DNA of 56,631 nucleotides, from positions 1-56,631 of IMG/VR virus record IMGVR_UViG_3300045421_000607, one strand, 5' to 3'. The notes beneath the pieces are model-generated. The model saw only the letters and a program-made list of their open reading frames with translations. It was not told where the DNA came from and did not search any database. The translations under genes and the position numbers were made by a program. Source of the stretch: a virus. Its lineage: Duplodnaviria; Caudoviricetes. The number at the start of each line of letters is the position of its first letter. The stretch's first letter is position 1. This document shows positions 6,687 to 54,718 of the stretch, one piece after another.

Positions 6687-6715
6687 ATATTAAAACGAAA
6701 TAAACATTTTGTCAA
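6687..6715 (-). promoter_or_regulatory. sigma70-type promoter TTGACA-17-TAATAT, ATG 6 nt downstream
   Basis: Read directly upstream of ATG 6680. Confidence 0.8.
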
Positions 6716-9491: not shown

Positions 9492-9492
9492 A

Positions 9493-21233: not shown

Positions 21234-21947
21234 TTAAATGAGCTCTACGCTACTAAATTTTAATCTTGATTCTTTTTTTGTTGTGAAAAAAAACGTTTGG
21301 TATAATCTACCCTCTTCATCTATATTAGAGAATCCATCCGCACCGCTATGTGGTTTCTTGCCTCTGCATAATATAAGTCTATTGAAAACTGCGCCAAGAG
21401 AATCTATAAGCCTCCAATTATTGTCAGGAGTCATCCAGTCATAATTTTTTGATGAATCGAGATTCTCCCACAAGAACAATCCAGAATCATTTGGAGCCTG
21501 AGGATTCAAATATATTAGCCCAACCCATCCGTCTTCCCCTACGCAGTTCCAAACGTCTGTCACATGATTGTGCACCCCCTGACCAATTCTTTGCCCTGTC
21601 TTAGGTTTTAAATGAAAAGAGCAATTCCATTTAGAATTTTTATATAATTTTCCTTCCCATTTTGGATTATCTTGGTTTGGCGTTATATCTTCTTGACTTC
21701 CGTGCGCAGGATAATCTAGATTCCATGCGTCTAAATCAATTTCTTCTCCAGTTATTTTATTTAAATTATATATAAGTGAGGCCGAAGATTTGAAAGGGCA
21801 TTCGTTAGCTCTCTTTGTGGTAGTCGCTTTCCAAGTATTGTTTCCATATGGAAGATAGTAGTTATTTTTTAATTCATTTAATGCATAATTTCTTACTTTA
21901 TATGGATCTTTATAAAAATTTTCAACAATTATTATATCTTTTTTCAT
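21234..21947 (-). CDS. 2OG-Fe(II) oxygenase-like protein (DUF6445-like)
   Basis: IIVENFYKDP, HxxD, GLIYL, FNRLIL...H, RLYQTFFF. Confidence 0.75.
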   Translation of the reverse strand: MKKDIIIVENFYKDPYKVRNYALNELKNNYYLPYGNNTWKATTTKRANECPFKSSASLIYNLNKITGEEIDLDAWNLDYPAHGSQEDITPNQDNPKWEGKLYKNSKWNCSFHLKPKTGQRIGQGVHNHVTDVWNCVGEDGWVGLIYLNPQAPNDSGLFLWENLDSSKNYDWMTPDNNWRLIDSLGAVFNRLILCRGKKPHSGADGFSNIDEEGRLYQTFFFTTKKESRLKFSSVELI

Positions 21948-29097: not shown

Positions 29098-29589
29098 ATG
29101 GATAAATCTCCTTTGTCTACTGAAGAACAGAATTTAATAAAATTAAATATAGAAAAATTTCGCTTAGAAGGTTTTACTTTTGATAATTTTTATATAAAAG
29201 AAGCGGGTAAAAACATTTATGGCAAAGATAAAGGTTTAGGAGTTTTTACTAGAGAAAGAATATCTGAAGGGGTTCTTTTTGGATATTTTCCCATGAGTTT
29301 TATTGGTAACAGGAAACTTTATTTAAATATATATAATAATCCTGTCAAAAGGTACGCGCATTGGGCGGCATGTATGTGTGAGAATTGCCAAAAAAACGGC
29401 GCAAGAGGATTTATAGCTTCAATTGGAGTTTTTATAAATTCTCCAGATTCAAAAGAAGATTGGAATTGTCATTATTATGTTGATCGTACCGCAGAAGTTC
29501 TTATTTTAAAATCTATCAAAAATATAGAGGCTAATCAAGAAATTTTAACTTGGTATGGGCAACATTATTATGATAAGTGGTGCACTTGA
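29098..29589 (+). CDS. SET-domain protein (putative lysine methyltransferase)
   Basis: KGLGVFT...I, FINS, NC, KNIEANQEILTWYG...Y. Confidence 0.75.
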   Translation: MDKSPLSTEEQNLIKLNIEKFRLEGFTFDNFYIKEAGKNIYGKDKGLGVFTRERISEGVLFGYFPMSFIGNRKLYLNIYNNPVKRYAHWAACMCENCQKNGARGFIASIGVFINSPDSKEDWNCHYYVDRTAEVLILKSIKNIEANQEILTWYGQHYYDKWCT

Positions 29590-39194: not shown

Positions 39195-39404
39195 ATGCTT
39201 GATTCGCAAGAGAATCAAATAGAGATTGATGTTTTCACTCCTTACTTAAGGGCTTACGATAGAGCTCCCATACATAGAATTACAAAGAAATTTAATAGGA
39301 ATGAAAGATGTCCTTATACGGATATAAAATTCAAAAAATGTTGCGGTAAAGATGGTAAAAACTTTTGTCCAAAGCTCACAAAAGATTATATAGATAATTT
39401 ATAA
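39195..39404 (+). CDS. SEC-C motif protein
   Basis: RNERCP...KFKKCCG. Confidence 0.7.
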   Translation: MLDSQENQIEIDVFTPYLRAYDRAPIHRITKKFNRNERCPYTDIKFKKCCGKDGKNFCPKLTKDYIDNL

Positions 39405-40408
39405 TGGATTTAAAATATGCAGATGTTGTTATAGGTCTCCAATTTGGGGACGAAGGGAAAGGCAAAGTCAGTAGTTTTTTATCCAAGGACTATGATATGG
39501 TTTGTAGGTTTAATGGTGGACCAAATGCTGGGCACACGGTCTATATTGAAAATATAAAATATAAAACTCATGTTATACCTTGCGGAATTTTTTATAATAA
39601 AACCAGCATAGTTGGTCCAAATTGTGTTTTAAATTTAGACAAGTTTTATCAAGAGATTGAGTATTTAAAAAATAATGGTTTTGATATAGATTTAATTAAA
39701 GTTAGTCCATATACTCACGTGATAACTGATAAGCATATACAGTGCGATTTAGAATATTTACAAGAAAAATTTGGTACTACTGGGCAAGGTATAGCTCCGG
39801 CTTATTCCGATAAAATGATGAGGAGTGGGCTTAGAGCAGAAAGTTCAATAGATAAAAAATACATATGGGATGGTAATCTAAAAGGCAAAGTCTTATGCGA
39901 AGGAGCGCAAAGTTTTTGGCTAGACATTAATTATGGTAATTATCCTTATGTTACTAGTAGTGAAACCCTACCTTATGCAGCTTGTTCTTTGGGTTTTTCT
40001 CCTAAAAAAATTAATAAAATAATTGGTGTAGCAAAAATATATGAAACCAAAAGCGGTGTTGATCCTCTTTTCCCGGACCTTTTGCTTCAAGATTTGATTT
40101 TTAATAAGATTATAGAACTTGGCAAAGAATTTGGAACTACTACAGGCAGAAAGAGAATAGTGAATTGGATGAGGATAGATAGATTGATATATGCTATAAA
40201 CAAAAGTGGGATTAATTATTTAATCATAAACAAGTGTGATATCTTAGAACGGGTAAATCAATTTAAATTAATTTCTGATTCTTTGAAAAATCAGATCGAA
40301 GATTTTAAAAATTTAAATGATATGTGTGCTTTTATAAATACCTTTATAAGAAATAATTTAGACGAATGGGTTGATATAAAATATTCTTTTAGTCCAGAAT
40401 ATATTTAG
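39404..40408 (+). CDS. purA: Adenylosuccinate synthetase (short form)
   Basis: GLQFGDEGKGK, GGPNAGHT, GTTGQGI, EGAQ, YPYVTS, TTTGRKR, NKCD. Confidence 0.92.
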   Translation: MDLKYADVVIGLQFGDEGKGKVSSFLSKDYDMVCRFNGGPNAGHTVYIENIKYKTHVIPCGIFYNKTSIVGPNCVLNLDKFYQEIEYLKNNGFDIDLIKVSPYTHVITDKHIQCDLEYLQEKFGTTGQGIAPAYSDKMMRSGLRAESSIDKKYIWDGNLKGKVLCEGAQSFWLDINYGNYPYVTSSETLPYAACSLGFSPKKINKIIGVAKIYETKSGVDPLFPDLLLQDLIFNKIIELGKEFGTTTGRKRIVNWMRIDRLIYAINKSGINYLIINKCDILERVNQFKLISDSLKNQIEDFKNLNDMCAFINTFIRNNLDEWVDIKYSFSPEYI

Positions 40409-40512: not shown

Positions 40513-41169
40513 ATGAGTCTAACAAAATTTCGACCTATTCCTTCTTGTCCGAAGACTACTATAATTTTAGACAGGTATAATAAACCTCTTAAATGTTTTC
40601 AAGGATATAGCATTAGACCAGATATTTGGATACAACCTGATAAAAAATGTCCTAGATTTTTGAGTCACAGATGCACACCATGTAAGTGCAAGCGGTATCC
40701 CTTATGTAGTTCTTCAACAAGGAGAAGAGTCAAAAGTTGGTCAACAGATTTTATTCCGCATCCTACTGATAAAGGAAAGGGGTGGGTTTGTTGTACACCT
40801 ATTTTTGAGTGCGTATCAGGTAATGCACCAGACATATCTATGCCACCAGAATGTAAAACTTGTGTTTGTCCTTTTGGTGGAAATCCAGATAATCCAGACC
40901 CCCATAGCATATGGGATCACTTTAGGGTTGCTACTATTCCTTGTCCTTCGGCGCCATTCTGCAAGCCTGGAACAGTTCCTAAAGCGTTAGGCATAGGACC
41001 TGATGGATGCATGAGATACATTTGCGTTACAGCTCCTCCCTCTATTCCTGATTGGTGCAAAACTGCGCGAGTAGATTGTACTAGAATACCTGGTCATGTT
41101 TGCTGTGGTGGATCAGGTGAACCTCCATTACCATGTGGTAGACCGGGTTTTCTCCCTTGCCCTTCTTAA
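40513..41169 (+). CDS. Cys/Pro-rich protein
   Basis: More than 20 Cys in 218 aa; GTGTAA motif 10 nt upstream of the ATG. Confidence 0.6.
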   Translation: MSLTKFRPIPSCPKTTIILDRYNKPLKCFQGYSIRPDIWIQPDKKCPRFLSHRCTPCKCKRYPLCSSSTRRRVKSWSTDFIPHPTDKGKGWVCCTPIFECVSGNAPDISMPPECKTCVCPFGGNPDNPDPHSIWDHFRVATIPCPSAPFCKPGTVPKALGIGPDGCMRYICVTAPPSIPDWCKTARVDCTRIPGHVCCGGSGEPPLPCGRPGFLPCPS

Positions 41170-41175
41170 AGAAGG

Positions 41176-41637
41176 TTAAATAAAATAAACTTCTAAATGT
41201 GTTTTTTTGTCTACAACAGAGAAACTTTGAAACATTAAACTGGCTCGGATTGTATTGACAAATTCTGACCATGCTTCATTAGTTTTTTCAACTGTGTAAA
41301 TTTTTCCTGGGGTAGAGAATTCTGCTGATAAATTTTCTGTTTTTTTATTTTCTTCTCCAATAATAAATTCCCAATTTTGATCAATTTTTTCTTTATGGTT
41401 TAGATTTTTAGGATTGTCTATTATTTTTTTTATGAAACTTTCGTCTTCTTTAATATTTAATCTTACATTTAAGTAATTTATAACTCTATTCTTACAAGTA
41501 CAGTTAGGATTATCTTTAGCACTTATTAAGTCTATTGCTAGTTCTGGATATTTTGTTTTGATTTTATTAAAAGCGTCTTCGTCCTGAATGATTAAATCGA
41601 AGTAGCGGTCTATATAGGAGATATCATTTATTGTCAT
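41176..41637 (-). CDS. Hypothetical CxC protein, paralog of 52432-52851
   Basis: KYPE...D...NCTC..R.INYL...W...FS shared with the paralog. Confidence 0.75.
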   Translation of the reverse strand: MTINDISYIDRYFDLIIQDEDAFNKIKTKYPELAIDLISAKDNPNCTCKNRVINYLNVRLNIKEDESFIKKIIDNPKNLNHKEKIDQNWEFIIGEENKKTENLSAEFSTPGKIYTVEKTNEAWSEFVNTIRASLMFQSFSVVDKKTHLEVYFI

Positions 41638-41688
41638 TATACTATATAATATATTTTTTTTAAAAAGTTTCTATTTTTTTTTGTATTT

Positions 41689-41694
41689 GTGTAA
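41689..41694 (+). promoter_or_regulatory. GTGTAA phage promoter motif directly upstream of the group I core
   Basis: The same motif precedes at least 8 genes in the window. Confidence 0.6.
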
Positions 41695-41699
41695 ATCTT

Positions 41700-42085
41700 T
41701 TTGGCCTTATCGGGTGAATTCGGTAAAAGCCCTCAAACATAAAAAAGTTCTTTGAAATATGAGGGTAATGCCGAGCCAAGCATATATCACGGCCTAAAAG
41801 ATATATGAAGGTGTAGAGACTAATTCTTGACCTGCCGTAGGAATAAAAGAGACACGAGCGCCCGAAGTTATCTAAAGAAGATAACTAAGACATAGTCCGA
41901 TCTTAATGGTAACATTAAGTTTTAAATTTAAAAATTTAAAAATTAACTATATGAAAATGCAAACTGCAAGTTGCTCCGCATGGAAATTATCTAACTTTCA
42001 TACCGTCCCGCGAATGGCCCCATCGTATAAAAGTTAAGGTTAAAAGACCATCCACTTAACCGTGAAAACAAGTAGTAAGGCTAAA
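41700..42085 (+). ncRNA. Group I ribozyme core without a host gene, probably circularly permuted
   Basis: P3 TCGGGTG 41710-16/CGCCCGA 41859-65; P4 TTCGGT 41719-24/GCCGAG 41770-75; P5 GCCCTCA/TGAGGGT; P6a CATATATC/GATATATG; P7 GACTA 41818-22/TAGTC 41893-97 (R GTAGAGACTA, S AAGACATAGTCC); P8 AGTTATCT/AGATAACT; P9 CTTAATG-GTAA-CATTAAG. Confidence 0.9.
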
Positions 42086-42087
42086 TC

Positions 42088-43716
42088 ATGAATCTAATAA
42101 AAAATACAAGAGCAGGGTTACCTGCCGACTTAAGTTCAACAGAATTAAGAAAAATACTTTCTGTAAATGATGAAAATTTTAAACAATTTTCTAAAGATCA
42201 TCTTCTTACAGAAGAAGCGCTTTTCTATAAAACAGGATTTTTTTGTCCTAAAGGAAATTCTATATCTAAAAGATCTGATAAAGAAGACATAAAAGAATAT
42301 AGAATAAATAATTATGATGGATTTTGGAAGGAATCTGGATGGATACCTCAAAGAAATAATAAAATCTATCTTTCTAAGCCTCGAAGTCATTGTCCTAAAG
42401 ATTTATTGCCTTACAGCTCTTTGGATAAGACAGGAGTTTATATTAGTGTGAATTGGTCTGGATATCAAGACGATTACGACAATGACAAGTATTGTGTTGC
42501 AGGGATTTTGAAACAAAGTCTTGCAGAAAAGGGGAAAACAAGATCTTTTCCTTATAGGAATGTCTTTGAGATTTTTGAGCATAGCGGTTTTCAATATAAA
42601 GATATATCAAATCATAGATTTTATTTAGAGAGTGGATATAGACACGGACAACCAATAGGTTACAATAAAATATATTTTCAATCTGGTCTAAATCCTTCAG
42701 AAGTGGCAAATTATAAATGTTTCTTAGTTCCCAACAGAAGAATTACAGACTATGACAATAGATTAGGGAAAATACATAGAACTTATATTCCCAGTATGGA
42801 TTTATTAAATGAGCCTCACAATGTTGTTAGATATAATGCCTTTTTTTATACAGGTGAATTACCAATAGTATATTTAACTGGCGCTAATAATCAAGTTAAA
42901 AGAGGTTTTGGTTTTGGATCTGCGTATCAACACTCGAATTCAAAATATATATTAAATACAAATTTTAATAATTTTAGAGTTAGAGCTACAGGAATATATG
43001 GAGAAAGCATATCGAAAACTATTTCAATATTTAATACTGGGAATATCACAGAAAGATTTTATATTGGCATTAATAATCCTTCGGTCATATCAATAGATCA
43101 TTACAAAACCCCTGGAATACCAAATTATGGCGTATGGACTTACGAGAGCCAACCAAATAAAACATATGGTCAAATTATAGATAAAGTTTATAAAGTAGGT
43201 AGAGAGGCGAATATTAATTTTAATATTAAAATCAATACAGCAGCCTTACCTGCAAATAAAGTGAATACAGTATTTCTAAATATATACAGGATTACTGGTG
43301 GCAATATTCCATTCAATAATGAACAATTTCCATCAAAAACCCCAGAAAAATGGTTTGAGAATAAAGGGTGGGGACATAAAAACAAAAGAGCCCCTTTTGA
43401 ACTAAAGGAGATTATAAATACAGGTTATTTTTCACAAAAATATGTTTTGCCAATAGATATTTACGCAAGAACGAATTCGAGTAAAGTTGTTGAAGATAAT
43501 ATCTTTTATCAAAATTTAGCTAGCGGAGACTACAAACCCATTAATAGTATTGGGCAACCAATTGATATTAATCCAGAAAGCGATAATAAATACGTAGATT
43601 TAAATAAACAAATAGGATTGACTTTCTATAATATAGGAGAAAACACCAAAGATTTACGTGTAAAGCTGGATACATTAGCAAAAATCAAAATGAAGGGCCT
43701 AGAAGAAAGCATTTAA
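42088..43716 (+). CDS. Hypothetical protein, probably virion structural
   Basis: 542 aa, rich in SG/TG motifs, co-transcribed with the tail-like gene. Confidence 0.55.
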   Translation: MNLIKNTRAGLPADLSSTELRKILSVNDENFKQFSKDHLLTEEALFYKTGFFCPKGNSISKRSDKEDIKEYRINNYDGFWKESGWIPQRNNKIYLSKPRSHCPKDLLPYSSLDKTGVYISVNWSGYQDDYDNDKYCVAGILKQSLAEKGKTRSFPYRNVFEIFEHSGFQYKDISNHRFYLESGYRHGQPIGYNKIYFQSGLNPSEVANYKCFLVPNRRITDYDNRLGKIHRTYIPSMDLLNEPHNVVRYNAFFYTGELPIVYLTGANNQVKRGFGFGSAYQHSNSKYILNTNFNNFRVRATGIYGESISKTISIFNTGNITERFYIGINNPSVISIDHYKTPGIPNYGVWTYESQPNKTYGQIIDKVYKVGREANINFNIKINTAALPANKVNTVFLNIYRITGGNIPFNNEQFPSKTPEKWFENKGWGHKNKRAPFELKEIINTGYFSQKYVLPIDIYARTNSSKVVEDNIFYQNLASGDYKPINSIGQPIDINPESDNKYVDLNKQIGLTFYNIGENTKDLRVKLDTLAKIKMKGLEESI

Positions 43717-43717
43717 A

Positions 43718-46700
43718 ATGTCACAAATTACTTCAGTAAAAGTTCTAGAAAAAAAATTAAACCCTAGCGGTAGTGTACTTTTTGATGAGTATATTCAAAA
43801 ATTTGTTTCTAACTATCTTTTTACTTGGGGTTTGCATAATGATAATACTTTAAATATTTTCTATGGGGCTAATCCTCCAATTCAATTAGAAGGAGTGAGT
43901 AAAGTTTATAGAGGATATGCGCTTGGTGGTGCTAATGACAGAAGAAAAATAATAGCGAACGCTTGGGACGAAAGCACTCCTCAAAACGCAAAAGATTTAA
44001 CGGGATTACGTGATATCGATGGGGAACATGTGCATGGATTAGCCTTATTAAATAATGGTACAATAACTGGTTGGACTAAAACTGGATACGTGAACGCAAT
44101 GGGAAACAGACAATGGGCGACTGAAAATAGTACTTTATGGAAGCAGTCTAGACATTCTGTAACCGGTGGTAAATTTTTAACAGGCGTTAAAAAAATTGGC
44201 GCAGATTTTCAAGCTAGTTTTGCTTTATTAAGTGGAGATATTCTTACTGGTTGGGGCAATATGGGAGAGACTTGGATCAATCCGGGATACGCATCGATTG
44301 GGAGAGGACCAGCTGTTTATTTTATAAATAAAAATGATAATAGAAAAAAATGGAAAGCATTTAATTTTGGTCATAATTTGCCTTTTCAACCAGCTTCAGT
44401 TAAGTGGAATTGGTATAAGAATGGTATAGCTTCTTATGAGTCTGGAAATGCTACCCATGTTGTAAGGACATACTTTCAAAATTGGTCTGCTGATGCTCAG
44501 CCTCAATTAAGAGGTCTTTTCTGGCCGGAAGGTTTACCCACAGCGAGTGGGAAATTTTCTTCATATGTTTCTAGTAACTATGAATTATCTGTCCTTACTG
44601 TAAGCGGAGGCGATAATTGGATTACAACATCTGGATCAGCCCAAAGGAATAATAATAATCCTTATGAAAGAGTAGTAATTGGTGGGCCTAAATCTTGGGT
44701 TGGTGGATTTATGTACGTTAAACCCTCTAGGGATACTTATTATAATCCTACTCTATGGAATCTGCCAGCAATTTCACAAAATCCTCAAACATCTGGATTT
44801 GGTCTCAAAACTATTTTATTAGAAAATGATGGAGACATTTGGGTTTCTACTGATACTGGTTTTCAAAATTGGTCTACAAAAGGTATTAATAAAAAATGGT
44901 TAGGCCTAGCTTATAATGCTGGCGCATCAGTTTCTTTTAGAACTCCCATAAGTAATATATTAGTATCAGATAATTTTACTTATGGCAAATATATAACAGC
45001 TTTTACAAATAGCGGATATTTATGGGTTTCTAATGATACAGGAGAGACTTGGGCTCAAAAAGGTACTCTTCAAAATTGGTCTTGCGCAGCAATATCTGCA
45101 GAAGGTCGATATCAAATAGCTGGTGCAAATAGTGGCTATCTTTGGAAATCAGAAGATTATGGTCAGAATTGGACGCAAATTACAAATTTAGGAATAAAAA
45201 ATTGGAAATCAGTTTCTTTGTTTGGGCCATCAAAAGATTGGGTTGGAAAGTATGATACTGGCAGAAATCTAATAACAAATGAATTTGCCGAAGCGGCTTA
45301 TATTAGCGCTGTTTCCGAAGATAATCTTTGGATTTCTTATGATTCTGGTACGAGCTGGAACTCAAAACTAGGTGGAAGCGTTTTTTCTTTAAATAATGGA
45401 ACTGTATCAGGTCCAACTAAAATTATTGGTGGAGAAGATGATACTTTAATTCCAGATAGTGGACTTATGTTTGTAGCGAACAATTTAGGAACAGATGGTT
45501 ATTATACTGGTCCAGCTTCTCCAGAAATTCCATTTGCTAGTTATCCAAATATATATTTAACAGGAGTGAAAGACTTCGACGTAGGTCAAAATTATATAAC
45601 TATCTTATTAAAAACTGGTTCAGACGAGTTGTTTCAATTGTCTGGGTTTGGCAACGCTCGTCCTGTAAGGTTAAATAAAGATGGATTAAACAATGTTAAA
45701 AAGGTTGTATCTACTAGAGACCATACTTTTGCTTTGGTAAAAAACGGAGACAGGTCTATCATATCTGGTTGGGGCTTAGAAGAGACAAACTTAAGTCAGT
45801 TTGAGCGATGGATTTGGAATTCTTATGGAGGCATTAGTGGATGGTTTAGTGGTTATATTCATGGAGCTAAAGACTGGACAGGAATTAAAGATTTTGATAT
45901 TGGGTACAATCACGGTATAGCTATCTTTGAAGATGATCGGGCTTCTGGATGGGGCGGAGAGCAACCAGTAGAGGTTAAAGGACTTATTGGACAAATTAAC
46001 AATAGATACAAAAACGTTAACGAAAAAGAAGTAAATTTTTATTTAGATACTCCATCTTTTAGCGGGAACGAGATTAGCTATTATACTGATGTTGCAGATT
46101 GGATATTTAAATACGATAATTCTTTAGACAGATGGATACTTACCGAAAGCGAAAATCAAAACAATGTAGCATATATGGCAAGATCAGCTGGATCTGGAGG
46201 ATTAGTAGGCAGCTGGGATGGAGTAGGAAATTATAATGGTCAAGAATTAGAAGTAAAAAATAATTCTGTTCAAACTATATATCCAGTAGAAGCTGGGGAA
46301 ACTTACATTTCAAACGTTACAGACGTTGATTGGATAGATGTTCCAAATAAAAATCAAATTTTTTCTTGGAATAGAGCGATTGTTTATACTGGTAAAAAAA
46401 TTAATCAAATTCAAATTTATAATTTTCCATCTGGTTTTGGATATGGTCAAGAAAATGAGTTTAGCTATTTGGGCGGCGGACAAGAAGAGATATTAGACAG
46501 CAGTACTTATGGTTCTGTTTGGACAACTGGATTTATTCTAAATAATCAAAATTCTCTTTTAGGACCCTCAATTAGCATAAGTAAAGACGGTAGATATCAG
46601 ACTATGGTTTCAGATAAAATTTATGTATCTCAGAATTCGGGTCAGAGCTGGGTAGCTGCTTTAGATCAAACAGGATGGAAAGACATAGCTTTAAGTAAGA

Positions 46701-49700
46701 ACGGACAAACGCAACTTGCGATTCAAAATAGAACTTATCCTAAAAATTGTGATCAAATATGGATTTCAAATAATTACGGAGTCACATGGAATGATCCTGG
46801 TACTAGCTTACCTGATATAGCTGGAGCAATGGCTTGGAGAGAGACTGAAGTAGGCGGAAGAATGAATTCTATTTTACCCGTACAAACAGATTCTAGCGCT
46901 CCGCTCTCGGATTTACTTGTTTTTTCTAGTGGAAATATAAAATATATATATTCTTTGCAAGATAATTTATTCCAAAACGGATTGGATCTATTTGATATAC
47001 CTGAAGGAGAAAACTGGATAGGAGGAGCAGTCTCAAGCGAAAGCGATTCTTTCTTTAAATACTTAACTTTTATTAGAGACAATAAGCCTATTTTAGTATC
47101 TTCAAATGTCGGAAGCACATTTACTGAAAAGCTTGCATCTGGAAAATGGTTAGATGTAGCAATGAGTAAAAATGGAAAATATCAAATAGTGACTTCATCG
47201 GGTCAGGGAGTTTGGATGTCTCAAGATTATGGCAGTGAATGGTATGCGCTTCCATTTTTTACAAATGCAGTTTATCCTAAGGTTAAAATGAGCGAAGATG
47301 GAAGATATCAAACAGTTCTTAGACATAATTTTGGAATTCATACGTCTAAGGATTACGGATTATCTTGGCAAATTCAATCTAATCAAAATAATTGGAAAGA
47401 CTTAGATGTTTCTTCTATTGGTACAATGCAAGTAGCTACCGCTATAAGCGGAGTAACTTTGACTGCGCCGAATACTTCTTTTTATTCAAGGTCTTTAACT
47501 AGTAAAAAAATTGAAGCTCGCACGAAACTTTATCCGACAATAGATTATCCACTTACAGTATATAGAGAAAGCTCTGGAGTAAGCGCGAGCAATCCAATAC
47601 TTAAAAATGGATCAACAGAAGTATTCTTGTATCAAAGGAACTCTAAAGATGCGCGGTGGGCATTATCTTTGAAATATTCTTGCTGCGGTAGCACAACAGT
47701 TAGAGAGAAAGAAATTACAACAAGAAGAAAGAGTATAAACGAGATAGGCTACGCTCTTCCTCCTTCTGGAGAATGGGGAACTTTTTCAATAGAAAGTTCA
47801 GGATCTTTCTTTAAAGATTTAAATGTTAGTGGCTTAAGGTTAGATTTTAATACGGCAAATCTTATAGATCTTATAGATGAGAGAGTAGGATATATGAATG
47901 ATCTTAGATATAATATAAATTATTCTAAGATTCTTCCTAATTATTCAAATGATAGTCAGATTAGTTATTGGCCAGATAATGTTATTAAACATTCTAAATT
48001 TGGAAGCAATATTTTAGTTCAAGATGCAGAATCTTCAACTTGGAAATTTAATGCAGACGACTTAAAATTGAGTAACCCACATATGACTGGATTTGTTGCT
48101 AGATTTAGCGCGGATCCAGGGGTAAATTGGGATCAGCAAATTATTTGTAATGGTTATCCAGTTTCAGTTAACTTGCAAGGGATTTTAAACGATGAACCCT
48201 TAAGAACAATAGACTATCAAACTTCAGGATCTTTTGATGGAGCTAAATGGTATATCTTATTAAAAGTAGTAGGCCAAGGCACAGGAACACCTTTGTATAA
48301 TGTGAGCTCAGGAAGCAAATTTGTATGGAAAGCTCCATATATTTACGATAAAGCATCTAATACTAAATTGCCTATGAGTGGAGAAATATATTGGGGCCCA
48401 GCAGTAGCGTCTGGTTTATCTGTCTGGCAACCATGTCCACACGGTAGAGTATTTTCTCAAGCAGGAGGGGTTTGCTATCAATATCAAATAAGAATATCGC
48501 ATCCCTTGATGTATTCTGGCGGCTTTACTTTACCTGGAAATCCAAGAAATATCTGGCCTCTTTTAAGTACCACAGGGATATATAGCGGATCTTATCTATG
48601 GAATGGTAGAGAAGACGAATCAAGTGGTCTCGCTCCAAGCCTCTCTCTTCAAAGAGGAAAAGAATATAGATTTATTCAGAAAGGCCCAATAAACAGTGAA
48701 AATAAATTAAAGATTTATCCTACAAGCGGAATTCATGTTTTTGAGCACGACGCTAGTAACGCTTTGGATTATCATTGCATAAGAGTCATTATTGATTCAG
48801 ATACGATATCGGATACTTCTATAAGATGGTCGAAAGGCGATGGAACTTATTTATCTAATTTTACGGGACAATTTCCCAGCACCAGAGGTTCTAATTTTAT
48901 AGGAACTTTTTATCAAAAAGATATAACTGGTCTTGTTGTAAATGAGTCTAATCCAAATTTTAGAGAATATGTTTATAATGACGTTACGGGGAATTGGGTA
49001 GCTTCTGGTCAAAGTAAAATAACAGGAACAATTATTTATGACAATAAAGTTCATCCCGCAGAATTTTGGAGATTCGCTGATGGATCTACGTTTAATACCT
49101 GGGAGAGTAATTTTATTAATGGTCAAAAAGCGCTTAATTCATATGCCTTCATTAGGTCTGGTGGTCAACAAATACCTTTTTATGGTATTATGCAGCAAAC
49201 ATCTAGAGATATTAATTTTGAAGCAAGAAATCCAAGCGGTAATCAAAATAATACAAAAAATATTTGGGGCGGGAGATTTGGCATAATAGGCAAAAATGAA
49301 TTTACTAGCGCCAGCAATCATTTTGTTGAGATGCCTCCAGGATATATTGTTCCATTTGATATACATGTTTGTACAGATTACAATACTCCAAATGATACGT
49401 CTTTATGGGATAAATTATTAGCACCGCTTCCTGTTAGGAGTGGAATATTTCAATTTTCTGGAATTGAAACCTCTGGTCATTTCTTTAAAAACAAGTTTGA
49501 TTATTTCTCGGCAAGAAAAGAGATTATTCTTTCTGCAGATGCAATTTCTAATATAATCTTTGTTCCCCCAACGCAAGCTAGATTACAAGCAAATGAATTA
49601 ATTTTTTGGACGGGCCAAACCTCGAATGGTCCCTGGCAAGAAGTAACTGGGCGAGTAGAAGGCTTTAACGGTAAAGCAGCGAGCATTTGGGGTGGAACTC

Positions 49701-50107
49701 AAAATTTTTGGAATGCAAATTCTTTAGAGTATGGACCAGAGGCCACTCTTGACAGCGTTTTTGGTAATGTATGGCAGCTTATACAGATTTATATTCCAAA
49801 CACTAGCTTAAATCTATCTAATATATACGCTAAAATTGGCAGGAAAGGCACAGCTTCAAACTGTACTACTTGCGGACATACAACTATCTCGATAGTTGGA
49901 AAGGCTGAAACCTTACCAGTAAATGTAAAAGGTGGATACATGCAATTAATAAGCGGACAAAATAATTTTATCTCTGGTTCAGATTATCGCGAAAGAATAA
50001 ATTCTGTATTTAAAGGCAATATTTATGCTTGGTCTTCTGATCCCGCTTTTGTCAAACAGATTCCAGTATTATTGACCGGCGCAGTAGATTATATTAATTA
50101 TCAATAA
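43718..50107 (+). CDS. Large tail/receptor-binding protein with RCC1-like and BNR/Asp-box beta-propeller repeats
   Basis: HGLALLNNGTITGW-type RCC1 blades; many S-x-D-x-G-x-x-W Asp boxes (SNDTGETW, SEDYGQNW, SYDSGTSW, SQDYGSEW, SKDYGLSW). Confidence 0.75.
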   Translation: MSQITSVKVLEKKLNPSGSVLFDEYIQKFVSNYLFTWGLHNDNTLNIFYGANPPIQLEGVSKVYRGYALGGANDRRKIIANAWDESTPQNAKDLTGLRDIDGEHVHGLALLNNGTITGWTKTGYVNAMGNRQWATENSTLWKQSRHSVTGGKFLTGVKKIGADFQASFALLSGDILTGWGNMGETWINPGYASIGRGPAVYFINKNDNRKKWKAFNFGHNLPFQPASVKWNWYKNGIASYESGNATHVVRTYFQNWSADAQPQLRGLFWPEGLPTASGKFSSYVSSNYELSVLTVSGGDNWITTSGSAQRNNNNPYERVVIGGPKSWVGGFMYVKPSRDTYYNPTLWNLPAISQNPQTSGFGLKTILLENDGDIWVSTDTGFQNWSTKGINKKWLGLAYNAGASVSFRTPISNILVSDNFTYGKYITAFTNSGYLWVSNDTGETWAQKGTLQNWSCAAISAEGRYQIAGANSGYLWKSEDYGQNWTQITNLGIKNWKSVSLFGPSKDWVGKYDTGRNLITNEFAEAAYISAVSEDNLWISYDSGTSWNSKLGGSVFSLNNGTVSGPTKIIGGEDDTLIPDSGLMFVANNLGTDGYYTGPASPEIPFASYPNIYLTGVKDFDVGQNYITILLKTGSDELFQLSGFGNARPVRLNKDGLNNVKKVVSTRDHTFALVKNGDRSIISGWGLEETNLSQFERWIWNSYGGISGWFSGYIHGAKDWTGIKDFDIGYNHGIAIFEDDRASGWGGEQPVEVKGLIGQINNRYKNVNEKEVNFYLDTPSFSGNEISYYTDVADWIFKYDNSLDRWILTESENQNNVAYMARSAGSGGLVGSWDGVGNYNGQELEVKNNSVQTIYPVEAGETYISNVTDVDWIDVPNKNQIFSWNRAIVYTGKKINQIQIYNFPSGFGYGQENEFSYLGGGQEEILDSSTYGSVWTTGFILNNQNSLLGPSISISKDGRYQTMVSDKIYVSQNSGQSWVAALDQTGWKDIALSKNGQTQLAIQNRTYPKNCDQIWISNNYGVTWNDPGTSLPDIAGAMAWRETEVGGRMNSILPVQTDSSAPLSDLLVFSSGNIKYIYSLQDNLFQNGLDLFDIPEGENWIGGAVSSESDSFFKYLTFIRDNKPILVSSNVGSTFTEKLASGKWLDVAMSKNGKYQIVTSSGQGVWMSQDYGSEWYALPFFTNAVYPKVKMSEDGRYQTVLRHNFGIHTSKDYGLSWQIQSNQNNWKDLDVSSIGTMQVATAISGVTLTAPNTSFYSRSLTSKKIEARTKLYPTIDYPLTVYRESSGVSASNPILKNGSTEVFLYQRNSKDARWALSLKYSCCGSTTVREKEITTRRKSINEIGYALPPSGEWGTFSIESSGSFFKDLNVSGLRLDFNTANLIDLIDERVGYMNDLRYNINYSKILPNYSNDSQISYWPDNVIKHSKFGSNILVQDAESSTWKFNADDLKLSNPHMTGFVARFSADPGVNWDQQIICNGYPVSVNLQGILNDEPLRTIDYQTSGSFDGAKWYILLKVVGQGTGTPLYNVSSGSKFVWKAPYIYDKASNTKLPMSGEIYWGPAVASGLSVWQPCPHGRVFSQAGGVCYQYQIRISHPLMYSGGFTLPGNPRNIWPLLSTTGIYSGSYLWNGREDESSGLAPSLSLQRGKEYRFIQKGPINSENKLKIYPTSGIHVFEHDASNALDYHCIRVIIDSDTISDTSIRWSKGDGTYLSNFTGQFPSTRGSNFIGTFYQKDITGLVVNESNPNFREYVYNDVTGNWVASGQSKITGTIIYDNKVHPAEFWRFADGSTFNTWESNFINGQKALNSYAFIRSGGQQIPFYGIMQQTSRDINFEARNPSGNQNNTKNIWGGRFGIIGKNEFTSASNHFVEMPPGYIVPFDIHVCTDYNTPNDTSLWDKLLAPLPVRSGIFQFSGIETSGHFFKNKFDYFSARKEIILSADAISNIIFVPPTQARLQANELIFWTGQTSNGPWQEVTGRVEGFNGKAASIWGGTQNFWNANSLEYGPEATLDSVFGNVWQLIQIYIPNTSLNLSNIYAKIGRKGTASNCTTCGHTTISIVGKAETLPVNVKGGYMQLISGQNNFISGSDYRERINSVFKGNIYAWSSDPAFVKQIPVLLTGAVDYINYQ

Positions 50108-50595
50108 CAAGGCTGGCAGTTTTCATTCCAAGGATATCTTGTAGCGAAAATTGAATTATTTAAATAATCGTGGTAACATGCAATCTGATATTGATAACAA
50201 GAATCCTCACGCATTGCACTACCAAAGCAAGAAGTACCGCCGGTTGGGCAGCTGCAACTCATGCTAAGTATTGCTCCGCTTTGGTTATTTGTTATGCTTG
50301 CGCCGTAAAATCGAAAATCTCGCGTCCCAGGGTTAATAGAAAAACTAGCACCCGCTGTTTGGTATTTTAAAAGTATAAAGTATCTGCCCCCATCCTGTGA
50401 ACGATAAGGAGTACGATCAGAAGCTTCTCCGCAATGATTATTAGAGAGGCTTGTACCCGCGCTACTTGCGCAAGTAGTTGATCCACCACATCCACTGTCT
50501 CCTCTAAATCTAGCATGTTTAGCATGCATAGGACGATTTCCACTAGTCCATGACTCACTAAAGCGATAAGTACAGTTTCCAGGCAAAAAAGCCAT
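50101..50595 (-). CDS. Cys-rich stand-alone homolog of an internal domain of the 2129-aa protein
   Basis: HARFRGDSG/VARFSADPG, DGGRYFILLK/DGAKWYILLK, CYQYQI/CYQYQI. Confidence 0.7.
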   Translation of the reverse strand: MAFLPGNCTYRFSESWTSGNRPMHAKHARFRGDSGCGGSTTCASSAGTSLSNNHCGEASDRTPYRSQDGGRYFILLKYQTAGASFSINPGTRDFRFYGASITNNQSGAILSMSCSCPTGGTSCFGSAMREDSCYQYQIACYHDYLNNSIFATRYPWNENCQPCY

Positions 50596-50801: not shown

Positions 50802-50867
50802 ATATATATATATTACACAAATTCTTAGGTATTTTCTACTTATTTTTTCGTGTAACTTCCAATACCT

Positions 50868-51587
50868 ATGCGTTTCACAAAAATCTTTGTTAAGAATAAT
50901 TTTGAGGATTTGAAGGAATCAACCGCTTGGGGCCCTCGACCCGGGGGGTGGGAATGCATTGGTTGCGGGTGCATTTGGGGTTGTCCAAGTCCATCGCCTA
51001 GTCCAAGTCCATCGCCAAGTCCAAGTCCATCGCCAAGTCCATCGCCTAGTCCAAGTCCATCGCCAAGTCCATCGCCAAGTCCAAGTCCAAGTCCATCGCC
51101 TAGTCCAAGTCCAAGTCCATCGCCAAGTCCAAGTCCATCGCCTAGTCCAAGTCCAAGTCCATCGCCAAGTCCTAGTCCAAGTGGTACACCTTGTGATGGA
51201 CTACCAGAACCACAGCCAGATTGGGAGTGTGATAAGGAGGAGGGAGATAAAGCTGATTGCCTTCTCGAACTCTTCGAGGCAAGTTTGGTCTGTGAAAATT
51301 TAGAAGCAAAAGCAGATGCAAACAATGCAGATCCTAATTGTCCAGACCAAGGAACCGTAGAAGATTTTCCATACGATTGTGACTATTGCGAACCTGGAGT
51401 TGCATCACCAGGATTAGACTGTAGTTACTCGATAGTTAACGGTGTGGTGGTCACGGCGAGATGGGTGTGGAAACCGCCTTATGCACCTAGGACTTTTGGG
51501 GTAGAGGAAATTCCAAATTGCGTTTGGATACCTGCTTCTGATGGAACACATGCTGGCGATTGCTGTAGCGGAACAGGAGTAGTTTAA
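50868..51587 (+). CDS. Cys-rich acidic protein with a (Pro-Ser)33 linker, copy 1
   Basis: PS run at 50985-51182; GTGTAA motif 12 nt upstream. Confidence 0.8.
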   Translation: MRFTKIFVKNNFEDLKESTAWGPRPGGWECIGCGCIWGCPSPSPSPSPSPSPSPSPSPSPSPSPSPSPSPSPSPSPSPSPSPSPSPSPSPSPSPSPSPSPSPSPSGTPCDGLPEPQPDWECDKEEGDKADCLLELFEASLVCENLEAKADANNADPNCPDQGTVEDFPYDCDYCEPGVASPGLDCSYSIVNGVVVTARWVWKPPYAPRTFGVEEIPNCVWIPASDGTHAGDCCSGTGVV

Positions 51588-51627
51588 TTCTCTGATAGAT
51601 ACTTTTTTCGTGTAATTTCCAATACCT

Positions 51628-52386
51628 ATGCGTTTCACAAAAATCTTTGTTAAGAATAATTTTGAGGATTTGAAGGAATCAACCGCTTGGGGCCCTCGAC
51701 CCGGGGGGTGGGAATGCATTGGTTGCGGGTGCATTTGGGGTTGTCCAAGTCCATCGCCTAGTCCAAGTCCATCGCCAAGTCCATCGCCAAGTCCATCGCC
51801 AAGTCCAAGTCCATCGCCAAGTCCATCGCCAAGTCCATCGCCAAGTCCATCGCCAAGTCCAAGTCCAAGTCCATCGCCTAGTCCAAGTCCAAGTCCAAGT
51901 CCATCGCCAAGTCCAAGTCCATCGCCTAGTCCAAGTCCAAGTCCATCGCCTGGTCCTGGTCCTGGTCCTGGTCCAAGTGGTACACCTTGTGATGGACTAC
52001 CAGAACCACAGCCAGATTGGGAGTGTGATAAGGAGGAGGGAGTTAAAGCTGATTGCCAGGAAGAGTACGATAAGGCAATGGCAGTCTGTCAAGAGTTACA
52101 AGCAAAAGCAGATGCAAACAGTGCAGATCCTAATTGTCCAGACCAAGGAAGTGTATCAGATCAATATCCATACGATTGTATCTATTGCGTAGATGGAACT
52201 GCATCACCAGGATTAGACTGTAGTTACTCGATAGTTAACGGTGTGGTGGTCACGGCGAGCTGGGTGTGGAAACCGCCTCATGCAACTAGGACTTTTGAGG
52301 TACAGGAAATTCCAAATTGCGTTTGGGTACCTGCTCCTGATGGAACACATGCTGGCGATTGCTGTAGCGGAACAGGAGTAGTTTAA
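51628..52386 (+). CDS. Cys-rich acidic protein with a (Pro-Ser)34(Pro-Gly)4 linker, copy 2
   Basis: PS run at 51745-51948, PG run at 51949-51972; GTGTAA motif 12 nt upstream. Confidence 0.8.
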   Translation: MRFTKIFVKNNFEDLKESTAWGPRPGGWECIGCGCIWGCPSPSPSPSPSPSPSPSPSPSPSPSPSPSPSPSPSPSPSPSPSPSPSPSPSPSPSPSPSPSPSPSPSPSPGPGPGPGPSGTPCDGLPEPQPDWECDKEEGVKADCQEEYDKAMAVCQELQAKADANSADPNCPDQGSVSDQYPYDCIYCVDGTASPGLDCSYSIVNGVVVTASWVWKPPHATRTFEVQEIPNCVWVPAPDGTHAGDCCSGTGVV

Positions 52387-52393
52387 TTTTTTT

Positions 52394-52431: not shown

Positions 52432-52851
52432 ATGAATATAGATAAAAACATAGCAAGAGCAATAGTTGAATTAGATACATTTTTTGATATAATTAAATTA
52501 AAATATCCAGAGACGCAAGAGGATATGTCTTCCTGGAAGACCGATTACAGTTGTAGTTGTGGAGCTAGATTTATTAATTTTTTAAATAAAAAATTTAAAG
52601 ATGAACAAGAAAAATCTTTTATCAATTTAATCATAAAGAATGATGAAGTAATTAAGAAGGCAGAAGAGATTAGAAGCAAGGAAGAAGAAGAGTATAAGAG
52701 CAGATTATTTCACGGTAAAGTTATAAAAATGGATAAATCCCCCCAATCTTGGGAAGAATTATCTGAAACTTTATTAAAGAAAAACGCCATTTATAGGGCT
52801 TTCTCCATTATAGATAATGGAGATTCTACAATCGAAGTTAGATTTCTTTAA
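52432..52851 (+). CDS. Hypothetical CxC protein, paralog of 41176-41637
   Basis: KYPE...SCSC..RFINFL...GK...W...FSI. Confidence 0.75.
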   Translation: MNIDKNIARAIVELDTFFDIIKLKYPETQEDMSSWKTDYSCSCGARFINFLNKKFKDEQEKSFINLIIKNDEVIKKAEEIRSKEEEEYKSRLFHGKVIKMDKSPQSWEELSETLLKKNAIYRAFSIIDNGDSTIEVRFL

Positions 52852-53790
52852 TTATTTAAATAAATAATCTAGGAACGAGAATAAAGAGACAATCATAAGC
52901 GGCCCGAAGTTATTAAGCCTTAGGAACAATAAAATTCCTAAATGAAAAGATGCTAGAATTAATATATAAATTAATCTTGTATCTTTTAACCATAAAAATA
53001 ATGGAGCACAGAATTGTATTAACATAATAGCATAATTGATAATTTTAGCAAATTTACTATTGAAAAATGTATAGACAGATTCTCTTAAAAATTCAGATTT
53101 AATATTTCTTAAATTATTCCCCCAGCCAGGATTTAGCGCTGCATATTTCAAGCCCTCTCCATGTTGCCAGAGCGAATCTTTTGATTTTGCTACCCCTGCA
53201 TTAAAATATATCCAAGATAAGTATACTTGAAAAAACCTAATTGACCAACCGTTACTATGATTTTCCGGTTGAGCAGCATTTAGGAAATAATCTATAGAAA
53301 ATTTTGTACCACAATCAGTGAATATTAAACATAGAAGCAATAATTTTATTACCTGATCTCCAGCCGTGCTCCAAACGGTGATTGCTCGATTTTGTATAGA
53401 AGCATAGGTTATAAAAAGACCCAACATAGAAAATTTAGTAAATATTCCCAATACAGAAGCTACGGCAAATACATAGAATAAATAATAAATTATATAAATA
53501 AAAACTTTAGATTTTCCTAATTGTGGTATTGAAAATAGCGAATAGGGAACATATAATCCTTCTTTATAATTTTTTATATAATTTTTAAATGGATATAAAC
53601 CTTCTGGAGTTAGATGCGATAGTATATCTTTTCTTAGATAAATACAATCAACTAAAATAAAAGAAGTTACCAATATCCTAAAATAACTTAAAAATGTTGT
53701 GCTTACTGCATAATCGAAGAAGAAAGAATCTATAGATTTTAAGAATTCAAATAGACTCACGGTTAAGACTCCCATCGAGATTCGTAACAA
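52852..53790 (-). CDS. HTTM-domain membrane protein (SdpB / vitamin-K-dependent carboxylase-like); start may be GTG 53760
   Basis: Multiple TM helices; GDQV, FSID, YFNAGVAK...W..G, FHLGI...FG..M. Confidence 0.8.
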   Translation of the reverse strand: MLRISMGVLTVSLFEFLKSIDSFFFDYAVSTTFLSYFRILVTSFILVDCIYLRKDILSHLTPEGLYPFKNYIKNYKEGLYVPYSLFSIPQLGKSKVFIYIIYYLFYVFAVASVLGIFTKFSMLGLFITYASIQNRAITVWSTAGDQVIKLLLLCLIFTDCGTKFSIDYFLNAAQPENHSNGWSIRFFQVYLSWIYFNAGVAKSKDSLWQHGEGLKYAALNPGWGNNLRNIKSEFLRESVYTFFNSKFAKIINYAIMLIQFCAPLFLWLKDTRLIYILILASFHLGILLFLRLNNFGPLMIVSLFSFLDYLFK

Positions 53791-54284
53791 AGTTTTGGAG
53801 GAGCACTTGGTTTGGGTCTTTTCTGGTAACCAAGAAGATAGTTTTTATTATGATTAATATTATATCTAATTATATATACTTTAAATGATATTAATGGGTC
53901 CTTTAATACGTCAAATGCATAATTCAATAATTTTTCTTCTGCCATCTCGTGAAAATATAGAAATGATCCATAGAAAGTAACAACGTTTTTTCTGACGGTC
54001 TTATTATGGATCTTTATGTCACCAATAGATTCTGCTGTTGATAGCAACCAATTTAATCTTTTTCCACTTTTTAATTTTATTATAAATTCATATTCTGAAG
54101 TCTCTTCTGACATGCCTGTAAAAATACCCCAATTACTAATAAAGTTTAATCTTCTAAATAACAGTCCTAGCCTTGGGAATTTGCTAATAAAAATTCTGAA
54201 TGGAGAAGCTACTACACAGGCGTAAAATACAGCTACAAAAAGATAACCATATACAAATATTCTAGAAATAATTTCTTCTATCAT
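53763..54284 (-). CDS. SdpA/DUF5819-like partner of the HTTM protein
   Basis: N-terminal TM helix followed by NWGIFT (cf. Q-x-W-x-x-F-A-P); immediately upstream of the HTTM gene. Confidence 0.55.
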   Translation of the reverse strand: MIEEIISRIFVYGYLFVAVFYACVVASPFRIFISKFPRLGLLFRRLNFISNWGIFTGMSEETSEYEFIIKLKSGKRLNWLLSTAESIGDIKIHNKTVRKNVVTFYGSFLYFHEMAEEKLLNYAFDVLKDPLISFKVYIIRYNINHNKNYLLGYQKRPKPSAPPKLCYESRWES

Positions 54285-54327
54285 ATCTAAATGATAGATA
54301 TTTTTTAAATTAAATCTAATATTAATT

Positions 54328-54718
54328 TGGACCTGCTCGGAGTTGAACCGAGGTCTTCTAATAATAGAAAAATAATATACTACAAGTTTAGTTGTTTTTG
54401 TTTTTTAGCTTTATATAGAGAAACAACAAACATATTTAGCGATTTTATTTTGAATACAAAACATTAATAGAATAAAAAAACTATTAATATAAAGACATCT
54501 AAATACGCAATATTCCAGTAGATGTGTCGTAGATATCACGCCGTAGGATTTTAGGCTACAGAAGTGGTCTCTTCTACGAGAGAAACTCTTGTAGAAAGAT
54601 GACCTTTGTATTTAGCTGTTTTGGCAGTTAATACTTTTAAGACTTTTTAAAGAGGCCCGTCTAAACCTCTACTTGCATATTAGTTTTTATCATTAAAATC
54701 GAAACCAAATTCAGGCCC
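54328..54718 (-). ncRNA. ssrA: tmRNA
   Basis: 5' GGGCCTG pairs with 3' CAGGTCC-A, including G3:U70; GGTTTCGA D-loop-like segment; T-arm CTCGG-TTCAACT-CCGAG; tag ORF 54625-54551 after TAACT; CCA not encoded. Confidence 0.93.

Follow-up and report, generated by a model that had tools for sequence, protein, structure and literature searches.

What do two adjacent genes encode when they agree in every nucleotide at their 5' ends and differ, over their 3' parts, almost exclusively by codons that change an amino acid? The question is raised by a two-gene cassette on the plus strand (positions 50843..52388) of IMG/VR virus record IMGVR_UViG_3300045421_000607, a 56,631-nt stretch of phage DNA with an estimated completeness of 37%, the whole of which we refer to as the window. 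The two open reading frames (ORFs), W1 (50868-51587, 239 aa) and W2 (51628-52386, 252 aa), are separated by an intercopy spacer of 40 nt (51588..51627), and a conserved upstream motif at 50847..50867 recurs at 51607-51627 ahead of the second copy. The 24 nt upstream of the two genes differ by one mismatch; the window contains this 24-nt pattern at these two places only, and none of 100 shuffles contains it. A scan of the region for promoters and terminators was uninformative. Our analysis suggests that W1 and W2 belong to a small multigene family, restricted to phages, of modular proteins with a stalk, and we hold the chances to be evenly balanced that these proteins are displayed on the virion as variable, ligand-binding fibres or decorations.

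Both proteins are built of the same four parts. W1 begins with a 14-residue tag (M-R-F-T-K-I-F-V-K-N-N-F-E-D; 50868..50909), invariant between the copies, which is followed by a variable N-side mini-domain with a C-x-x-C(-x-C) motif (50910..50984), a 68-residue (PS)n linker with 33 PS dipeptides and Tandem Repeats Finder periods of 12, 18 and 30 (50985..51188), and a Cys-rich head domain of 132 residues with 11 Cys (51189..51584). In W2 the tag and the CxxC mini-domain (51628..51744) are the same as in W1, and they precede an 80-residue (PS)n(PG)n linker with 35 PS dipeptides plus (PG)4 (51745..51984) and a head of 133 residues, again with 11 Cys (51985..52383). The heads start at a conserved P-C-D-G-L-P. 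As the first-pass annotation of this DNA had stated, the N-terminal coding regions are nucleotide-identical and all Cys are kept: the identity runs for 156 nt from the ATG, through the 39-residue N-part and the first 13 linker residues, and each protein has 15 Cys at matching positions, four in the N-part and 11 in the C-terminal domain. The G+C content of the heads at third codon positions (GC3) is 0.30, similar to the 0.20-0.28 of other genes of the window, whose overall G+C is ~30%, and is consistent with the annotated reading frame. A foreign origin of the GC-rich cassette was ruled out on the same grounds, and its raised G+C can be ascribed to amino-acid content since the GC3 is genome-like.

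Comparison of the C-terminal domains of W1 and W2 identified 28 differing codon columns, comprising 26 non-synonymous changes, one synonymous codon (GAA/GAG) and one single-codon indel, which bears out the earlier claim that nearly every difference there changes an amino acid. All amino-acid pairs originally listed are present (the LLELFEASLVCENLE/QEEYDKAMAVCQELQ block, N/S, R/S, Y/H, P/T, G/E, E/Q, I/V and S/P), and to these can be added D/V, T/S, E/S, F/Y with an inserted Q, D/I, E/V, P/D and V/T. What did not stand is the reading of the flagship block as many changes. In W1 the corresponding DNA (51256..51283) consists of a 6-bp arm, a 16-nt core (51262-51277) and a second 6-bp arm; in W2 (52052..52079) a perfect 6-bp inverted repeat, ATTGCC/GGCAAT, encloses a 16-nt core (52058-52073). 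Twelve of the 16 W1 core positions agree with the W2 core when the latter is reverse-complemented, a level of matching reached by 42 of 200,000 composition-preserving shuffles, and four agree when it is read directly. We conclude that the LLELFE/QEEYDK block is for the most part the product of one in-place 16-nt inversion between 6-bp inverted repeats. Read codon by codon, the inversion would turn Q-E-E-Y-D-K into a Leu-rich string, and four later changes would give L-L-E-L-F-E. The lone synonymous codon pair also sits within this block. Caution is called for, as the pairwise ratio of non-synonymous to synonymous substitution rates (dN/dS, or omega) counted this single inversion as several independent non-synonymous changes. 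A scan found no further in-place inversions, and contigs from four lake-water runs revealed no inversion polymorphism at either block, a result that carries little weight because rare variants are dropped by contigs.

A second IMG/VR contig (L003; record completeness 12%) carries the same tandem pair, L3a and L3b, with the same 40-nt spacer between the genes and the same spacer ahead of both copies. By blastn, positions 4773-6323 of L003 match window positions 50843-52387 with 85% identity over 1618 aligned nt. The cassette is the only part of the window that matches L003; the homology ends exactly at the cassette borders, and no further matches between the two were found by blastn or by tblastx at E<=1e-8. 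When 1.84 billion representatives were scanned with HMMER, eight matches came up, of which one (P0004) is a true distant relative and one is a 47-aa fragment of W2; six weak matches to Ig-like repeat proteins we regard as spurious. P0004 led to P0009 and to six metagenome loci, L004-L009, in which the frames extend upstream into the same four-part layout with a (PTT)n linker. The data set, all of it from metagenome assemblies, thus comprises a (PS)n clade of four sequences (W1, W2, L3a and L3b) and a (PTT)n clade of eight. Across the family, the 14-aa tag with its K-I-F-V-K-N-N core is followed by a short piece that varies and in most cases has a C-x-x-C motif, then by a Pro-rich linker of 66-89 residues and a head of 132-138 residues, giving full proteins of 239-275 aa.

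All ten complete copies are intact ORFs with all four parts, and three further copies are cut by contig ends. There are two copies per array in the window and in L003, at least four in L004, and one each in L005, L007 and L008. Copy remnants were also observed: the spacer and the tail end of a previous head precede L3a (L003 ~4750-4797), and the first ~11 nt of an extra copy follow L7 (L007 ~5575-5600), so arrays evidently grow and shrink. Every one of the ten complete copies retains the KIFVKNN core, as does the truncated copy L4d. Within clades the first 42 nt show 88-100% identity, and tag codons differ synonymously between clades (AAA/AAG, ATC/ATT), which indicates that the tag is conserved as protein. 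The heads of the (PS)n and (PTT)n clades share ~28% identity.

Other searches were negative within their scopes. No family member was found in 185,579 prokaryote species genomes, by an alignment-based search in longer proteins, by a protein search with the W2 head region, or by scanning metagenomes for patterns of the (PS)n clade; when viral contigs were scanned for exact matches to the tag DNA, the L003 contig alone was returned. NCBIfam yielded matches to the repeat stretch and no head or tag family. A literature search did not find the tag motif and gave nothing relevant on phage Cys-rich, Pro-linker families under diversifying selection; the passages found in PMC2938197 deal with dioxygenase neighbourhoods alone and are not pertinent. 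W1 and W2 are best described as tandem paralogues in an orphan family, known so far only from related lake-water phage contigs.

The bias towards amino-acid change extends over the (PS)n clade, in which 88 of the 132 codon columns are identical, 44 are amino-acid-variable and none is synonymous-only. W1 and L3a differ by 11 single bases, nine at codon position 1, two at position 2 and none at position 3. Codons for identical amino acids differ at 1 of 92 positions between W1 and W2, at 0 of 83 between W2 and L3b, and at 0 of 12 in the most divergent segment comparison. Likelihood tests were run with in-house GY94/F3x4 code, which as a control returned an omega of 0.05 on a flanking gene. For the (PS)n clade, model M0 gave an omega of 2.32 (likelihood ratio test against omega=1, with twice the log-likelihood difference, 2dlnL, of 6.65, p 0.0099), and comparison of M2a with M1a placed 27% of sites at an omega of ~29 (2dlnL 56). 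Omega was 2.5 (p 0.011) with the inversion block masked and 3.25 (p 0.017) with the whole variable segment, columns 15-52, masked. Taken alone, the W1-W2 pair is not significant (NG86: 5.0 synonymous and 37.0 non-synonymous differences, dN/dS 2.1, Fisher p 0.16; on the four-sequence alignment, dN/dS 2.0, p 0.24).

Genes next to the arrays behave differently from the heads. Between L007 and L008 or L009, flanking genes have omega values of 0.03-0.39, with one gene at 0.79 on 17 differences (dS 0.05-0.68), versus 0.98-1.32 for the heads of the same pairs. Between L005 and L007, two flanking genes are identical and the head differs at 41 nt. The variable positions also coincide across the family: of the 132 shared columns, 44 are variable in the (PS)n clade, and 31 of these are variable in the (PTT)n clade too (Fisher p 1.5e-7). 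These comparisons support an excess of amino-acid change on a conserved Cys scaffold that is specific to this gene. The diversifying selection proposed in the first-pass annotation is therefore upheld for the four (PS)n genes taken together, with lower values in flanking genes, but not for the window pair by itself nor for the (PTT)n head as a whole, in which 31% of the sites nonetheless fit an omega of 4.8.

The sequences also indicate how variants arise. Columns 15-52 of L7 are 91% identical to L4a and 63% identical to L5, while the rest of the L7 head is 97% identical to L5 and 92% to L4a. Informative sites split 29:7 versus 6:20 across this breakpoint (Fisher p 8e-6), a split reached by none of 10,000 permutations, which at the level of the assembled sequences proves that head segments have been exchanged between alleles. 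N-parts and heads are discordant as well, with N-part and head identities of 100% and 89% for W1-W2, 64% and 97% for W1-L3a, and 42% and 99% for L4a-L4b, indicating that N-parts and heads reassort across the repeat linker; short-read assemblies are least reliable in phasing N-part to head across long repeats, particularly for L004. The W1/W2 mini-domain is only 64-66% identical in nucleotides to those of L3a/L3b, and the mini-domains of L4a, L4b and L4c are mutually unalignable. In L4b (L004 6787-7614) a Gly-rich hydrophobic, membrane-like stretch of 45 aa takes the place of the CxxC mini-domain. Linker length ranges over 66-89 aa among copies, and in lake-water contigs the W1 linker is 6 nt shorter at 51075 and 12 nt longer at 51174; such copy-number differences probably reflect slippage. 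Gene conversion combined with selection that holds codons apart is a known model for paralogues. The near-zero silent differences fit ongoing gene conversion with selection keeping particular codons apart; in imported alleles of old standing, silent differences would be expected. With segment exchange and gene conversion at work, site-model tests are also inflated, and a dS near zero is not a clock.

A tag, a CxxC piece, a spacer and a diversifying, Cys-scaffolded head are what would be expected of an N-terminally docked protein with a variable binding surface, and heads that alter their amino acids with hardly any silent change are what a part tracking a moving target should show. In the mechanism that we propose, the 14-aa tag would attach the protein to a conserved partner, which most probably sits on the virion, and the (PS)n or (PTT)n spacer of 66-89 residues would present the head at a distance. 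The head of ~135 aa, held by about 11 conserved Cys, would offer the variable binding surface, with a fixed set of positions changing amino acids and scaffold codons staying identical even at silent sites. Tandem and dispersed copies would exchange sequence by gene conversion or recombination, with the repeat linker and the conserved flanks as joints. This exchange would homogenise whatever selection does not keep apart, and diversifying selection would keep and add differences at the variable positions. Clustered events, namely the hairpin-flanked 16-nt inversion, indels and linker slippage, would supply new variants. The sequences themselves show the architecture, the arrays, an omega above 1, the contrast with flanking genes, the mosaicism, the inversion and the lack of DGR (diversity-generating retroelement) marks; from these we infer that the proteins are displayed on the virion, that they bind a ligand (in host-surface recognition or adhesion) and that disulfides form. 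The rigid, polyproline-II-like stalk and the adhesin or decoy role put forward in the first-pass annotation are conjectural.

The genes around the arrays bear on this proposal. Upstream of the array, the window and L004 share a module made up of a giant BNR/RCC1-repeat protein and a small Cys-rich reverse-strand ORF (41% and 37% identity, respectively), and lectin-like and BspA-LRR genes lie near the array in L007. The array region appears rich in surface-interaction genes, and the giant BNR-repeat, lectin-like and BspA-LRR neighbours support a role in contact with the host or the environment. The giant protein of the window (43718-50107, plus strand, 2129 aa) has weak BNR/Asp-box and RCC1 repeat matches and no PHROG, and its 41% identity to the giant L004 ORF extends over ~1680 aa. 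The reverse-strand ORF that separates the giant protein from the array codes for a second Cys-rich orphan (window 50101-50595, 164 aa; L004 5229-5765, 178 aa). By eye, a C-Y-Q-Y-Q-I-like motif is common to this orphan and the C-terminal part of the giant protein.

Several known systems offer parallels. Modular phage receptor-binding proteins and tail fibres (T4 gp37, T7 gp17 and those of lactococcal phages) combine a conserved N-terminal virion attachment with an exchangeable C-terminal head. The present family is similar in its conserved N-terminus, its hypervariable, mosaic C-terminal head, its recombination at conserved joints and its position beside a giant repeat protein that is likely to interact with surfaces. 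It differs in having no PHROG or Pfam fibre match, in its size of only 239-275 aa, in a shaft that is a low-complexity Pro-Ser or Pro-Thr spacer rather than a trimeric beta or coiled-coil structure, and in its Cys-rich head and tandem arrays; its virion location is a deduction. Conotoxin and other venom superfamilies have a conserved signal or pro-region, a hypervariable mature peptide on a conserved Cys framework, tandem duplication and dN/dS>1. The near-invariant tag, the conserved Cys codons with hypervariable residues between them, the arrays and an omega above 1 all recall these families, whereas the phage setting, the missing signal peptide, the long Pro-rich spacer, a head of ~135 aa rather than 10-40 aa and the lack of any sequence relation set the two apart. 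In the staphylococcal MSCRAMM adhesins Clf/Sdr, a long Ser-Asp dipeptide-repeat stalk similarly stands between an anchor and a ligand-binding domain, binding being presumed for the phage heads. However, NCBIfam scores for these families are 15-21 bits, on the repeat only, against cut-offs of 1150-2500; the family translations contain neither a signal peptide nor LPXTG, and the order is reversed, with the anchor N-terminal and the head C-terminal.

A number of observations weigh against virion display of a selectively diversified head. No structural (capsid or tail) hallmark gene was found in the 56-kb window, where the sole 'head' match is a weak minor-coat PHROG at 21234-21947, and no neighbour of the arrays is constant, as there are two alternative upstream and two alternative downstream modules. 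Read from the translations, the N-terminus of W1 and W2 has no signal-peptide-like hydrophobic stretch, from which it follows that disulfides would form only after lysis or that the Cys may bind metal instead. Pfam gave 0 families for W1 and W2, and the 13 head sequences gave three scattered, chance-level Pfam matches at E<=10. PHROGs gave 0 for W1, a PDB profile search found no relative (best E 0.25), and protein atlas searches returned no usable relative. As for selection, omega under M0 for the (PTT)n clade is 1.05 (p 0.8), indistinguishable from neutrality, although site classes assign 55% of sites to omega 0 and 31% to omega 4.8 (2dlnL 44). The (PS)n-clade test rests on four sequences, and L003-type flanks occur as loose ends in the same lake-water runs, so that the four genes may be paralogues of one phage population. 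Finally, tests of M2a against M1a are prone to false positives under recombination and multi-nucleotide events, both of which occur here. An AlphaFold2 run on the 13-sequence head alignment had a mean pLDDT of 38 and a pTM of 0.36, too low for use.

The main rival explanation is that the products do not belong to the virion but are made in, or released from, the infected cell, for example as substrates of neighbouring modifying enzymes or as variable decoys against host defence, the conserved tag being a recognition or leader peptide. Its candidate enzymes are the HTTM/SdpB-like membrane protein, the papain-like protein, the 2OG-Fe(II) oxygenase and glycosyltransferases. Just downstream of the array in the window lies a 139-aa gene (52432-52851), beyond which a convergent HTTM gene overlaps with a partner gene. 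This module recurs in the same order in L007 (56-59% identity, compared with ~28% for the heads of the window and L007), and L009 and L007 are 96% identical over 3 kb of this downstream DNA. The HTTM membrane protein region (52852-54284, minus strand) has a Pfam score of 46 bits, and its overlapping upstream partner of 173 aa starts with a hydrophobic stretch. A literature search found no link between HTTM domains and phages. The HTTM protein also matches the SdpB family weakly, at 28.8 bits, and the tag is conserved far above the remaining protein, as in leader peptides.

On the upstream side, L003, L007 and also L008 have a second type of module, with a 2OG-Fe(II) oxygenase, a small ORF and a papain-like/lectin-C-term protein (72% and 55% identity between L003 and L007). 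At L007 2228-4810 and L003 2224-4733 these genes comprise a weak GT77-like Nucleotid_trans match, below its cut-off at 20.3 versus 22 bits, the 2OG-FeII_Oxy_3 oxygenase and the papain-like/lectin-C-term protein (Pfam E 1.5e-7). The L003 and L007 enzymes are possible modifiers of a Pro-rich substrate. No enzyme gene is constant, however: L003, L005 and L008 differ downstream, L003 having a different gene for a 326-aa protein and L005 and L008 sharing a downstream sequence of their own that is unlike that of L007, and the window and L004 differ upstream. At 28.8 bits the SdpB match falls well short of the 178.4-bit cut-off, and no significant solved relative of the oxygenase was found. To our knowledge, leader-core peptides do not resemble proteins of 239-275 aa with a long spacer. 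We consider a non-virion product unlikely. An SdpC-like product of an SdpA/SdpB (HTTM) system would be expected to show constant linkage to an SdpB-family HTTM gene, an N-terminal signal peptide and processing to a short peptide; an HTTM gene adjoins the array in the window and in L007, other DNA follows it in L003, L005 and L008, and W1 and W2 show no hydrophobic N-terminal stretch. The alternative modules on both sides of the arrays point to the array as a junction of module exchange.

A second explanation dispenses with adaptive diversification: clustered mutational events (inversion, template switching, multi-nucleotide changes and imported segments) together with relaxed constraint on redundant tandem copies would produce the same differences. 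Twelve of the 44 W1-W2 nucleotide differences do lie in the one inversion block, many other differing codons change two or three bases together, and mosaicism is proven; the (PTT)n omega near 1 and the non-significant window pair point in the same direction. Set against this, omega in the (PS)n clade stays at 2.5-3.25 after either masking, and the 11 W1-L3a changes are single-base and avoid position 3. About half of the sites have an omega of 0 and every complete copy is intact, while the same columns vary in clades that share ~28% identity. Imported old segments should moreover show silent differences, and none of the 12 codons concerned does. Mutation and relaxed constraint by themselves seem to us a rather improbable account.

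It is highly improbable that the pair, or its 5' identity, is an assembly artefact of a repeat-rich region. The concern arises from Logan contigs of four lake-water runs, in which long contigs hold the flanks (17.8-18.1 kb on the upstream side and 2.3 kb on the downstream side) and the cassette is broken into pieces of ~80-160 nt, none spanning it, with linkers partly uncovered. The linker repeats are ~200-240 nt long, and reads may fail to bridge repeat linkers of 200-270 nt. Nevertheless, the independent L003 record has the same two-copy layout and 40-nt spacer, its two N-parts were assembled as different, and the copy order is set by unique junctions (flank/N-part, head 1/spacer and head 2/flank) read from the sequence. 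Exact linker lengths and some of the N-part-to-head phasing are uncertain as a result of the repeat linkers.

Targeted hypermutation by a diversity-generating retroelement (DGR) or a similar templated mutator is the least credible source of the variation: concentration in the C-terminal domain of a phage protein with silent sites almost unchanged is a hallmark of DGR targets, but PF00078 (RVT_1) was found in 0 of 2 records (the window, 37% complete, and L003, 12%; L004, L007 and L008 were not included), a six-frame search of the window record gave the two genes only and tblastn over the window and loci no extra partial copy that could be a template, and mismatches involve all four bases, whichever copy is taken as the reference, in seven of seven pairs (for W1-W2, A 9, T 16, C 9, G 10 versus A 14, T 8, G 12, C 10). 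A DGR origin was rejected for want of a reverse transcriptase in the records searched, a template and an adenine bias. The likeness to DGR variable proteins such as Mtd of Bordetella phage BPP-1 lies in a C-terminal domain in which set positions vary, the scaffold is constant and silent sites escape change; here, in contrast, the variation includes indels and an inversion and is spread over ~350 nt, with the last 16 residues invariant.

A broader proposal joins the parts into a DGR-independent hypervariability device of large lake-water phages; that all of its parts hold together is doubtful. The repeat-DNA linker would have two roles: it would be a physical stalk, which phage-coded enzymes may hydroxylate or O-glycosylate, and a recombination joint at which CxxC mini-domains and heads reassort among tandem and dispersed cassettes. 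Continuous gene conversion would erase silent divergence while selection keeps a defined head surface apart, small hairpin-flanked inversions would yield new helix variants, and the array would mark the breakpoint at which whole neighbouring modules swap between phages. Chloroviruses encode Pro-rich repeat proteins together with a prolyl hydroxylase and glycosyltransferases, and plant cell-wall proteins contain Ser-Pro glycomodules. Like these systems, the family combines a Pro-Ser or Pro-Thr stalk with a virus rich in sugar-modifying genes, and the 2OG-FeII_Oxy_3 gene and the weak Nucleotid_trans match of L003 and L007 lie 1-2 kb upstream of the array. Its oxygenase, however, has no significant solved relative and its transferase match is under the cut-off, and hydroxylation or glycosylation of its stalk is conjectural.

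The remaining genes of the window include a phage-type replication and nucleotide-metabolism set: primase, DnaB-like helicase, UvsX-like recombinase, thymidylate synthase, both ribonucleotide reductase subunits, a carbamoyltransferase and a GMP-reductase-like gene. The replicative polymerase is divided among separate genes (6712-10888, minus strand), which encode an 856-aa DnaE core that lacks PHP, a 225-aa RNase T-like exonuclease and a PHP-domain protein of 254 aa. Genes for a PD-(D/E)XK nuclease and endonuclease V and several sugar-modifying genes are also present. A SET-domain gene (29098-29589, plus strand) lies between the genes of the two ribonucleotide reductase subunits. The GMP-reductase/IMPDH-like gene adjoins a short adenylosuccinate-synthetase-like gene (39404-40408, plus strand, 334 aa), whose product scores under both cut-offs (PurA 265 versus 402 bits, PurZ 116 versus 300 bits). 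A full-length group I intron (41673-41919, plus strand; Rfam RF00028, 74 bits) is flanked by ORFs of 218 aa (40513-41169) and 542 aa (42088-43716) and adjoined by a 153-aa reverse-strand ORF (41176-41637). A one-piece, phage-borne tmRNA at 54327-54718 (minus strand), with an unusual predicted tag peptide, was detected by Rfam (107 bits) and by ARAGORN.

Host range depends chiefly on the phage proteins that contact the host surface, and the known routes to variability in these proteins are fibre-module exchange and DGRs. A hypervariable gene for surface interaction would in itself be of a known type; what appears to be new is the orphan family and its mode of change, by cassettes, conversion and inversion. 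The family shows a third pattern, in which tandem cassettes combine concerted evolution of scaffold codons with divergence by amino acid only at fixed positions, and it documents a micro-inversion as the source of a new helix variant. It offers a compact model for the interplay of gene conversion and diversifying selection in a virus, and its tag, stalk and head provide a concrete target for study in uncultured freshwater phages.

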